From NCBI GenBank assembly GCA_036639875.1, contig JAVWHX010000001.1, positions 87,155 through 151,154 of the forward strand: 64,000 nt of DNA. Reading direction: 5' to 3'. The DNA is from Coprobacillus sp. (lineage in GTDB: Bacteria; Bacillota_I; Bacilli_A; Erysipelotrichales; Coprobacillaceae). Shown one piece after another: positions 54,122 to 55,119 of this stretch (position 1 is its first letter; the number at the start of each line of letters is the position of its first letter). The position numbers and the translations under genes were made by a program. The notes under the pieces were generated by a model. It did not search any database. It was not told the origin of the DNA and saw only the letters and a list, made by a program, of their open reading frames with translations.

Positions 54122-54874
54122 CTACAGACTAAAATCATATAATCTGTCTTTATATCTAATTCGATACCCTTCTAATATTTCGCTATCTTTCAATTGTATT
54201 AATTCTTTTGAAGATTCAACAGGATTAACTTCTTTATTTGAATAAATATATATATGTGGATCATTGTTAAAAATATAATCTTTCAAATAACTTATAAACA
54301 AATATAAATCAAATGACTGTTTTTCTTCACAATACTTCTTAAAAATAGTAAATTGGGCTGGAAGAGTTTTTAAAACATCATTTATCACTTCTATTTGTTG
54401 ATTTGAATTAAGGTTCATCAAACCATAATAAACATCTATATCAAATAATGATAAAAGGTCTTCATAATCTTGAACTGAAATAAAGTTCTCTTTTTTTAAT
54501 TCATTAATTGCTTCTAACGATAAATTTAAAGAATTTATTTCAAAATCACATTTCACCATTCTATAATGTTCATCAAAACGATTGTTTTGATAAACGGCCT
54601 GTTTGATAAAACTTTGTTCTCTCTTTTTTTCTTCTTTTTCAATTTTTGTATTTATAATCTCATGAGACGAGATACTGAGTAAGTCGATTTCAGCTTGCTT
54701 TTCTAATAATTCTGCAGTTTTCTTTTCTAATAACTCATCATAAAGATCTGCCATAACAACTCCTACTTTTTTATATATCTGTTGATGAATATCTTGACAT
54801 ATTTTTTTAACAGCAAAAAGTAAGAATGCAGCTAATGATACCATCACTAAAATAACTGCTATAAAACTTATCAT
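54122..54874 (-). CDS. b-like peripheral-stalk protein with unrelated C-terminal globular domain
   Basis: 250 aa. One N-terminal TM helix (ISFIAVILVMVSLAAFLLFAV), an approx 70-aa charged helical segment (ELLEKKTAELLEKQAEIDLL ... EKEEKKREQ), then an approx 140-aa domain of unknown type. Occupies the position of atpF/atpH. Confidence 0.55.
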   Translation of the reverse strand: MISFIAVILVMVSLAAFLLFAVKKICQDIHQQIYKKVGVVMADLYDELLEKKTAELLEKQAEIDLLSISSHEIINTKIEKEEKKREQSFIKQAVYQNNRFDEHYRMVKCDFEINSLNLSLEAINELKKENFISVQDYEDLLSLFDIDVYYGLMNLNSNQQIEVINDVLKTLPAQFTIFKKYCEEKQSFDLYLFISYLKDYIFNNDPHIYIYSNKEVNPVESSKELIQLKDSEILEGYRIRYKDRLYDFSL

Positions 54875-55119
54875 TAGCTAATTAAAGGATTAAAGAAAAG
54901 TAACAAGAATACAAATCCAAACAAAAGTAATAATAATACAGTAATAATAATAGCAATTATCATAACACTTTGAATAACATCGCTTTTTGTTTCAGGGTTT
55001 CTTCCTACTGCTTCCGCTGTCTTTGCCCCAGTTAACCCTAAACAAATGCCTACACCTAAAAACGCAAGCCCTAGCATCCATCCTATCGATTGTACAACCG
55101 ATCCTAAAATCTGTTCCAT
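54874..55119 (-). CDS. F0 c-subunit-like hairpin protein lacking the ion-binding carboxylate
   Basis: 81 aa starting at MEQILG (GAGAGGAAG RBS). Helix 1 is Gly-rich ([22 protein letters not shown]). The loop GRNPE parallels the canonical (A)RQPE. Helix 2 ([25 protein letters not shown]) contains no Asp or Glu. Confidence 0.7.

Follow-up and report, generated by a model that had tools for sequence, protein, structure and literature searches.

Can an F-type rotary ATPase remain coupled to an ion gradient when the only c subunit encoded with it lacks the carboxylate that binds the ion? The question is raised by an operon on the minus strand of a 64,000-nucleotide stretch of Coprobacillus sp. DNA (GenBank assembly GCA_036639875.1, contig JAVWHX010000001.1, positions 87,155 to 151,154; the whole stretch is referred to below as the window), in which a small gene at 54874-55119 lies among genes for F1 subunits and for very large membrane-anchored proteins. 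The original prediction, made from the sequence alone, was that this gene encodes a c-subunit homologue without the essential carboxylate of helix 2, and that the complex to which it belongs is neither an ATP synthase nor an ion pump. The 54874-55119 product is a genuine c-subunit homologue without an ion site, and sequence comparison detects no a subunit in the operon. We consider it likely that this product forms the membrane ring of a non-canonical F-type ATPase in which ion translocation has been lost, an ATP-driven motor in which the c-ring would serve as rotor or bearing.

A c-subunit homologue without an ion-binding site

The mechanically called open reading frame (ORF) of the c gene extends from 54874 to 55155 on the minus strand and would encode 93 amino acids (aa). 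A shorter, 81-aa product is the likely one, because a ribosome-binding site (GAGAGGAAG) lies 5' of an ATG at 55119 and c homologues start at the equivalent Met; the upstream gene terminates at 55139. Both the 81-aa product and the protein strings first quoted from it are present in the window.

The proposed homology of this product to the c-subunit hairpin is borne out by profile alignment. The protein scores 32.4 bits against the Pfam ATP-synt_C model (PF00137; gathering score 24, E=1.1e-7) and matches c subunits of the PDB down to E=3.9e-10 with phmmer, the best solved match being the c1 subunit of Acetobacterium woodii, while the profile of its family aligns in hhalign with eight reference c subunits at a probability of 97% (E=1e-10), no other template being matched. 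The equivalog cut-offs of the NCBIfam 'F0F1 ATP synthase subunit C' models are not reached (best 31.3 versus 71 bits; TIGR01260, 24.4 versus 43.95). The hairpin aligns without gaps with solved c subunits from helix 1 to the C-terminus. As originally described, helix 1 is rich in glycine (G22, G24, G28, G31) and is followed by a polar loop that contains the sequence GRNPE, and these glycines, together with R40, N41 and P42 of the loop, are invariant in 25 family members; the window protein itself carries Cys26 at the position where most members have the Gly that completes a GxGxGxG motif. A total of 26 columns are invariant in these 25 sequences, among them the loop G39-R40-N41-P42-x-T44-K45-x-D47 and the majority of the glycines that pack the ring, and both a C-terminal NP motif and the GRNPETKxD loop are conserved in the family. 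In F1Fo enzymes this loop is the part of the c subunit that contacts gamma and epsilon.

Ion-translocating c subunits have an acidic residue, Asp or Glu, midway along helix 2, where it binds H+ or Na+. Ungapped HMMER alignments of the window protein to A. woodii c2 and Ilyobacter tartaricus c, as well as alignment with MAFFT, place Thr60 opposite A. woodii E62, I. tartaricus E65, Escherichia coli D61 and Bacillus PS3 E56, in agreement with the claim that no acidic residue occupies the ion position of helix 2. The remaining Na+/H+ ligand positions (I. tartaricus Q32, S66, T67 and Y70) are occupied by Leu27, Val61, Leu62 and Leu65. One acidic residue, the Asp of an SDV sequence at the start of helix 2, had been named as a residue that a reliable alignment might yet place at the ion site. 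This residue, Asp47, does not do so, because it aligns with the loop Asp of 'KGDII' or 'QSDII' in canonical c subunits, outside the binding site.

Conservation of the loss across the family

The carboxylate is missing from every family member seen in a survey of homologues. A search over 5.8 billion proteins returned 1518 matches to the c protein, and in the 120 closest cluster representatives at 90% identity column 60 is occupied by Thr (98 sequences), Ala (10), Ser (10), Ile (1) or Leu (1), and never by Asp or Glu; the sole acidic residue past the loop in these 120 sequences is a Glu that ends one of them (P0051), beyond the conserved NPL motif. The same column is Thr in 39, Ala in 29, Ser in 10 and Val in 3 of 81 species-level genes, none of which encodes an acidic residue at positions 49-78. 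A HMMER search of 1.84 billion representatives yielded just 37 at E<=1e-10. Among representatives at 50% identity, those with the GRNPETK loop have Val, Ser, Thr, Ala, Phe or Ile at column 60, and the matches that come next are c subunits of two kinds, fused multi-hairpin forms and ordinary ones with Glu.

The carboxylate-less state of c is conserved under purifying selection, as the ratio of non-synonymous to synonymous substitution rates (dN/dS) for the 81 species-level genes is about 0.16 overall and 0.23 in helix 2. Identity across loci amounts to 44-80% for c, compared with 53-73% for beta, 20-31% for the stalk protein and 7-24% for a membrane protein with five transmembrane (TM) helices, which puts c level with beta and alpha near the top of the operon in conservation. 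The window c protein is identical to one from metagenome-assembled genomes of Coprobacillus sp., and public records label the c, alpha and beta genes of this family 'F0F1 ATP synthase subunit C/alpha/beta'.

The homologue search also surfaced c subunits that consist of 3-8 fused hairpins (P0149, P0151, P0159, P0164, P0168, P0171 and P0172). Glu is kept in some of their hairpins only, the others having Q, G, A or T, and these proteins represent a different, and also little-described, route to fewer ion sites per ring.

Operon structure and the F1 subunits

The c gene is the third of 12 genes, listed in operon order in Table 1, whose reading frames overlap or sit less than 20 bases apart. These overlapping or nearly abutting frames indicate that c is co-transcribed with alpha, beta, gamma, an epsilon-like subunit and a b-delta-like stalk.

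Table 1. Genes of the window operon, in operon order, with the features or matches on which each description is based (TM, transmembrane).
Gene product	Length (aa)	Position	Strand	Features and basis
First giant protein	1972	56708-62626	minus	N-terminal TM, shared module, collagen triple-helix repeat, fn3/Ig-like
Bitopic protein	518	55139-56695	minus	N-terminal TM, shared module, Gly-rich (GGxGG) spacer of ~80 aa, Ig-like domains
c-subunit homologue	81	54874-55119	minus	Pfam PF00137, alignments to solved c subunits
Putative stator stalk	250	54122-54874	minus	N-terminal TM helix, long helix, C-terminal delta (OSCP)-like domain
F1 alpha	438	52793-54109	minus	Pfam ATP-synt_ab E=2e-72; solved alphas up to 339 bits
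F1 gamma	261	52003-52788	minus	Pfam ATP-synt PF00231 E=1.9e-21, 77.5 bits versus threshold 39.9
F1 beta	450	50654-52006	minus	Walker A GGAGVGKT, catalytic GERSREG, Walker B intact
Epsilon-like protein	116	50307-50657	minus	Beta-sandwich domain only; position and weak similarity
5-6-TM membrane protein	167	49820-50323	minus	Poorly conserved; position directly after epsilon
Bitopic protein	230	49131-49823	minus	N-terminal TM helix and shared juxtamembrane module
Second giant protein, N-terminal part	489	47644-49113	minus	TM helix and shared module
Second giant protein, C-terminal part	3091	38365-47640	minus	Terminal TM helix, then KKRK tail

The assignment of alpha, beta and gamma is unambiguous and their catalytic motifs are intact. 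Walker A is intact in the window alpha, and the arginine finger motif of alpha, S[VI]SR[LIVM]G, is found in 71 of 71 family members; in beta, Walker A is conserved in 67 of 71 members and the catalytic GER[ST]REG motif in 68 of 71. The C-terminal domain of alpha is about 65 residues shorter than the canonical domain, and most family members are likewise short (437-449 aa). Beta gives 399 bits against a solved engineered hybrid F1 beta and 384 bits against natural bacterial F1 betas. The similarity of the epsilon-like protein is more remote: Pfam and NCBIfam contain no match to it, its sole matches by PDB profile are epsilon or mitochondrial delta chains (E 0.12-1), and in hhalign its alignment with epsilon (E=0.006 over 82 columns) is the best among the templates.

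The start codon of the stalk gene shares one base with the c stop codon, and virtually every related locus has a protein of this kind and size after c. The C-terminal 110-120 residues of the stalk resemble delta/OSCP, as illustrated by weak Pfam OSCP matches in 7 of 33 members (the three inspected match profile positions 130-164) by an hhalign match to residues 139-167 of E. coli delta, and by a further hhalign comparison with four delta subunits, the only template matched, at a probability of 59% (E=9e-5, 112 columns). A single-sequence AlphaFold2 (AF2) model of low confidence (predicted local distance difference test, pLDDT, 48.6) consists of a helix from residue 2 to 99, six short helices and then strands. 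Because a b-like topology is combined with a delta/OSCP-like C-terminus, the 250-aa stalk reads as a b-delta fusion in place of separate b and delta subunits. Homologue searches with this protein and with the 167-aa membrane protein returned near-identical sequences only. Public annotation of fused or extended stalk subunits is inconsistent; the long b of N-ATPases is annotated as 'subunit delta' in Sulfuricella (L088 9843-10580) and as 'ATPase' in Cereibacter.

The distribution of the operon was examined with a pattern scan for c relatives that took one genome per species, and from which 80 loci were fetched. About 300 species-level genomes encode a relative of the c protein. The 80 loci derive from Lachnospiraceae, Oscillospiraceae, Eubacteriales Family XIII, Erysipelotrichaceae and the RF39-like 'Mycoplasma sp. 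CAG:472', and the carriers of a c relative include the isolates Kineothrix alysoides and Hominiventricola filiformis. The ATPase genes that follow c are found in the same order in 70 of the 80 loci, and the large proteins encoded upstream recur in most of them (the 1972-aa type in 62, the 518-aa type in 67).

Several departures from this order were observed. In RF39-like Bacilli (L016, L017, L021-L028, L033, L034, L051, L053 and L071) the order is c, stalk, alpha, beta, epsilon, 5-TM protein, module protein and gamma, with gamma about 1.5 kb farther downstream. Two loci (L046 and L047) contain a permuted cluster, with the order beta, epsilon, 5-TM protein, giant, mid-size protein, c, module protein and second giant, such that the c gene is located apart from the ATPase genes, between surface-protein genes. 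Whole-cluster copies, two or three in number, occur on different contigs of JAEEIH01 (L014, L043, L056), CALWLW01 (L044, L076) and JAHABX01 (L030, L077).

Scans for promoters and terminators at both ends of the operon gave signals no better than those of shuffled sequence, and the genes that flank it are unremarkable, encoding a PadR regulator, a radical SAM protein, a GH1 glycosidase and an RpiR regulator. The region immediately upstream (62664-63873, minus strand) contains a Cys-rich ORF of 65 aa and a histidine kinase of the GHKL (HATPase_c_5) type, and sister contigs have a LytTR response regulator beyond the point corresponding to the window end (L095 129-2456). This Agr/LytTR-like two-component module may regulate the operon.

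Absence of an a subunit and the adjacent membrane protein

The original prediction drew also on the absence of an a subunit, and none is detectable in the operon by Pfam, tblastn, PDB profile or hhalign. None of the twelve operon proteins matches the Pfam ATP-synt_A family, and tblastn with the E. coli a, b, delta and AtpI proteins found nothing in the window or in the 80 related loci (1.4 Mb). A candidate membrane partner of the c-ring is the 5-TM protein encoded directly after epsilon. In about 58 of the 68 loci that show this region, a multi-TM ORF of 167-236 aa follows epsilon, and a further nine loci have it as a fusion with the gene that comes after. By every sequence test applied it is distinct from an a subunit: the family alignment contains no conserved Arg and no other conserved charged intramembrane residue, neither a PDB-sequence profile nor Pfam searches with each member gave a match, to an a subunit or otherwise, and hhalign against eight a subunits gave a probability of 0.3%. 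An AF2 model of the 5-TM protein, too poor for a comparison of folds (pLDDT 57.5), gave no Foldseek match at E<=0.001.

These observations bear on the possibility that the ring still binds an ion or other ligand at a site that needs no carboxylate, made up of the Thr60 hydroxyl and water or occupied by an anion, with the 5-TM protein acting as a divergent a subunit. Most family members do have Thr or Ser at column 60, and a conserved multi-TM protein does exist. However, the neighbouring ligand positions are all hydrophobic, a hydroxyl at column 60 is evidently not required, because Ala, Val, Ile, Leu and Phe also occur there, and the 5-TM family shows neither the charged residues of an a subunit, including the Arg, nor any similarity to one. 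We therefore consider a site of this kind very unlikely.

The lack of a detectable stator-like a subunit, together with the single TM helix of the stalk, is also what would be expected of a static anchor, that is, a non-rotating ring that tethers an F1-like ATPase to the membrane, the F1 part being a limited-swing actuator or a regulated ATPase that acts on the accessory proteins. In line with this, the complexes of the mycoplasma relatives treated below are described as labile, with much of their F1-like part cytoplasmic (PMC12994834). Against it, the operon retains gamma, an epsilon-like protein, a b-delta stalk and the invariant F1-contacting loop of c, which amount to a full rotor-stator inventory, and the ring-packing glycines would be superfluous for a simple anchor. 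A static ring appears unlikely for these reasons.

Phylogenetic relationships

Neighbour-joining trees of alpha and beta (200 bootstraps, about 30 sequences) were calculated with canonical references from E. coli, Monoglobus, Listeria, Enterococcus and two mycoplasma Type 1 operons, N-ATPase references from Cereibacter, Acaryochloris, Picosynechococcus and Sulfuricella, and mycoplasma Type 3 references from M. gallopavonis, M. hyorhinis and M. cynos. The window family forms a clade with the mycoplasma Type 3 enzymes, with a bootstrap support of 99% for beta and 89.5% for alpha, and concatenated alpha and beta give 100% for the Type 3 clade, also after Dayhoff-6 recoding. Five signature columns in each of the two subunits are common to the window family and Type 3. 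The mycoplasma Type 1 enzymes group with the canonical enzymes and thereby serve as a control against long-branch or compositional attraction; the window family falls outside the canonical clade, and the N-ATPase alpha and beta subunits form a clade of their own.

As reported by Berlureau et al. (PMC12994834), the MIB-MIP system does not function without the mycoplasma Type 3 ATPase and the lysine of its Walker A motif; Type 3 enzymes hydrolyse ATP in the service of a surface protein system rather than of bioenergetics, and force transmission across the membrane has been proposed for them (PMC12994834). For the Type 2 mycoplasma enzyme, a role as a gliding motor has been proposed (PMC11864180). 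The view that the window complex is not an ATP synthase or ion pump, itself an inference, gains independent support from the grouping of its alpha and beta with the Type 3 F1-like X0 enzymes. Neither the operon nor the nearby genes contain a Pfam match to a peptidase or a MIP-type protein, a result from Pfam and not from a direct sequence search for MIB or MIP, which was not made.

Comparison with curated profiles sets the operon apart from each of the named families. The NCBIfam cut-offs for MSC_0619 and MSC_0618 are not reached (alpha 326 versus 520 bits, beta 395 versus 570 bits), and the window alpha and beta also score below the NCBIfam cut-offs for the gliding-motor proteins. On these sequence profiles the window operon is a family separate from the MSC_0618/0619, gliding-motor and alternate-F1Fo families. 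An N-ATPase origin was considered and rejected, given the separate clade formed by the N-ATPases, a probability of 0.3% for the stalk against the N-type b, and the unmatched NCBIfam cut-offs (TIGR03324 and TIGR03305; 369 versus 750 and 416 versus 752 bits); hhalign likewise found no similarity between the operon families and the N-ATPase Q, R or a proteins.

In Listeria monocytogenes, a second F-type locus (lmo0086-lmo0094, with the atpA1/atpD1 copies; L092) falls within the clade of the window family, with a support of 89.5% for beta, 70.5% for alpha and 100% for the concatenated subunits, and the window operon belongs with the lmo0086-0094-type cluster, which is an informal group and not a curated family. 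This locus has been named an 'ATP synthase-like operon' (PMC13082608), and is reported to be specific to Listeria sensu stricto and upregulated in Caco-2 cells (PMC5736727, PMC3091722). An insertion in lmo0091 (gamma) reduces intracellular replication 5.7-fold (PMC3091722), and the literature regards the locus as a second ATP synthase with a link to intracellular replication (PMC5736727, PMC3091722). These papers on the Listeria locus make no mention of a missing carboxylate or a missing a subunit. Literature searches that included full text turned up no account of the Bacillota cluster and none of a homomeric c without the carboxylate, and a search on unusual motility in Kineothrix found nothing relevant.

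A complete canonical operon coexists with the atypical one in Listeria, on another record (L085). This coexistence, and the fact that A. woodii c1 is the best solved match of the window protein, would be compatible with a hybrid ring, in which the carboxylate-less c co-assembles with canonical c so that fewer ions are carried per turn, as with A. woodii c1. In the present family, however, c is encoded in an operon with its own alpha, beta, gamma, epsilon-like and stalk proteins and is syntenic with them in 70 of 80 loci, it falls below every NCBIfam cut-off for c equivalogs, and its conserved partners are surface proteins. A mixed ring is thus improbable.

Giant and membrane-anchored accessory proteins

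The F1 and membrane genes are flanked in the operon by genes for large proteins that share an N-terminal architecture. In profile-profile comparisons, the TM helix and approximately 200 juxtamembrane residues are homologous among the 1972-, 518-, 230- and 489-aa proteins, with hhalign probabilities of 49-98%, five of the six pairs lying at 88-98% and the pair of the first giant and the 518-aa protein at 97.7%. This shared juxtamembrane module has no Pfam family. The remainder of the first giant includes a Pfam Collagen match (E=1e-7) as well as fn3. In nine loci (L014, L039, L040, L042, L052 and L054-L057; about 4900-16200) the 230-aa module protein and the 5-TM protein are fused into a single protein of 400-405 aa. 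From the shared module and these nine fusions, the 5-TM protein and the four accessory proteins probably form one membrane assembly beside the ATPase.

The second giant is split in the window by an in-frame TAA (47644-47646, minus strand), a single G-to-T change in what is otherwise a gene for a 3582-aa protein. Three 99.9%-identical contigs from other samples have GAA (Glu) at this codon and encode one 3582-aa product, and the second giant is one continuous ORF in 24 of the 24 related loci in which both parts are visible. The TAA reflects a nonsense mutation confined to the strain or, alternatively, an error of sequencing. In a sister Coprobacillus assembly (L096 2516-8412) it is the first giant that is split, into 518 and 1429 aa; very long accessory genes are repeatedly interrupted in assemblies, through real mutations or errors.

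Such interruptions, a nonsense codon in one giant of the window and a split of the other giant in the sister assembly, could be viewed as signs of a decaying duplicate, a second ATP synthase operon that is losing its function, with the c subunit as one casualty; a natural Listeria variant without lmo0082-0094 is also known (PMC13082608). This explanation is largely refuted by the selection and synteny data. The c gene evolves with a dN/dS of 0.16, almost all members keep intact catalytic motifs, several families of Clostridia and Bacilli share the gene order, and the insertion in lmo0091 has a phenotype (PMC3091722), all of which makes decay highly improbable.

The 3091-aa ORF, when considered separately, has no signal peptide yet ends in a type-I-like anchor, a combination that would suit a polymer translocase, with the ion-less ring as a conduit and F1 as an export ATPase for the giants, and that recalls the translocase-origin hypothesis of rotary ATPases. 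The idea was rejected once this ORF proved to be the tail of the 3582-aa protein, which has an N-terminal TM/signal anchor and is cut by the strain-specific TAA. All accessory proteins have ordinary N-terminal anchors, and the gamma subunit that the operon retains would plug the ring, so that export through the ring is scarcely credible.

A proposed mechanical role

None of the five alternatives considered above is favoured by the data, and a motor that no longer translocates ions would account for the composition of the operon as follows. F1 would hydrolyse ATP and thereby turn gamma and epsilon together with the c-ring, held against a stator formed by the b-delta stalk and probably also by the 5-TM protein. 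The ring would carry no ions and would act only as a lipid-embedded rotor or bearing. Torque, or a cyclic strain, would reach the four accessory proteins at their TM helices and juxtamembrane modules, such that work would be done on extracellular fibres (collagen-like, Gly-rich and Ig-like) instead of on an ion gradient. A mechanism of this type would parallel the proposals made for the mycoplasma motors of Type 2 (gliding) and Type 3 (MIB-MIP). We further suggest, tentatively and in the knowledge that it could well prove wrong, that the complex corresponds, in cell-walled Bacillota, to the mycoplasma F1-like X0 enzymes and may even represent their ancestral form, and that it turns or pulls giant fibres for adhesion, movement or host interaction.

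Several points weigh against a motor of this kind. Rotation, the formation of a ring, its stoichiometry and its contact with the accessory proteins are all inferred, and the 5-TM protein could be an a subunit that has diverged beyond recognition. The trees are neighbour-joining trees on about 30 sequences in which the branches of the window family and of Type 3 are both long. The accessory proteins have no homology to the mycoplasma X0 proteins that hhalign can detect (probabilities <=1%), and because of this the functional analogy with the mycoplasma systems is drawn from alpha and beta only. Finally, the system may be impaired in the window strain itself, because the TAA splits the second giant.

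If the proposal is correct, the combination of a c-ring without an ion site and the lack of an a subunit would define an F-type rotary machine that is fully uncoupled from chemiosmosis, and would settle the conversion of an ATP synthase into a mechanical motor for a large and accessible family. Firmicutes relatives that keep c and a b-delta stalk would represent an evolutionary intermediate, with clues to what the X0 sector replaced. The operon would then belong to a class of bacterial surface motor that has so far gone unrecognised and is widespread in gut Lachnospiraceae, Oscillospiraceae and Erysipelotrichales, and for which Listeria monocytogenes, with a homologous operon, offers a genetically tractable and immediate experimental system. 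As a consequence of the 'F0F1 ATP synthase' labels, metabolic reconstructions of gut Clostridia and of Listeria may count a false bioenergetic ATP synthase.

Comparison with known systems

Compared with canonical F1Fo enzymes, the window operon has in common the core order c, b, (delta), alpha, gamma, beta, epsilon, and the alpha, beta, gamma and c subunits are homologous, with conserved catalytic residues. It differs from the canonical enzymes in that these have an a subunit, a c carboxylate, separate b and delta subunits and a full-length alpha, and it adds to the canonical set the single-TM-anchored proteins (including the halves of the split second giant) and the 5-TM protein. The N-ATPases (atpDCQRBEFAG) are likewise encoded by a second F-type operon without a separate delta and with a long b of approximately 235-265 aa. 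In contrast to the window operon, they keep an a subunit, AtpQ and AtpR and a Na+-binding c with Glu, and they have another gene order.

Precedents for a c hairpin without the carboxylate are found in A. woodii c1, the second hairpin of which has Gln, and in the duplicated c subunits of V-type and archaeal enzymes. These site-less hairpins share a polypeptide, or are intermixed, with others in which the site is retained, and they function in an ion-translocating enzyme that has an a subunit. The window c, unlike A. woodii c1, is a single hairpin with no site at all and is encoded by the only c gene of its operon.

The mycoplasma Type 3 and Type 2 systems (MSC_0618-0624; the M. mobile G1-ATPase) likewise combine a second F1 set with membrane proteins and large surface proteins, and the F1-like X0 enzymes likewise have no a subunit and are proposed to perform mechanical work on surface proteins (PMC12994834, PMC3369863). 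The mycoplasma clusters differ in organisation, with seven genes in the order 12-TM protein, small protein, gamma, epsilon, large protein, alpha and beta, and, unlike the window operon, they contain no recognisable homologue of c or of b/delta (PMC3369863). The mycoplasma 12-TM protein was considered as a fused c-ring or as a relative of the 5-TM protein, and neither comparison gave an hhalign signal.

The most extensive resemblance is to the Listeria locus, which likewise encodes, in order, proteins of 1959 and 769 aa, c, a 348-aa b-delta protein, alpha, gamma, beta, epsilon and a 186-aa TM protein. Downstream of it, no counterpart of the 230-aa protein or of the second giant was seen. The Listeria proteins are more conservative, with a clearly recognisable delta (TIGR01145, E=6e-8) and epsilon (TIGR01216, E=5e-12), and alpha is full length in Listeria and in mycoplasma Type 3, unlike the window alpha. 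The c loop reads GKNPNAKK in Listeria in place of the GRNPETK of the window family, and the pattern scan missed Listeria for this reason. As in the window family, the Listeria c subunit has no acidic residue in helix 2, with Val at the carboxylate column, and lmo0086 and lmo0087 carry the same N-terminal module as the accessory proteins of the window.

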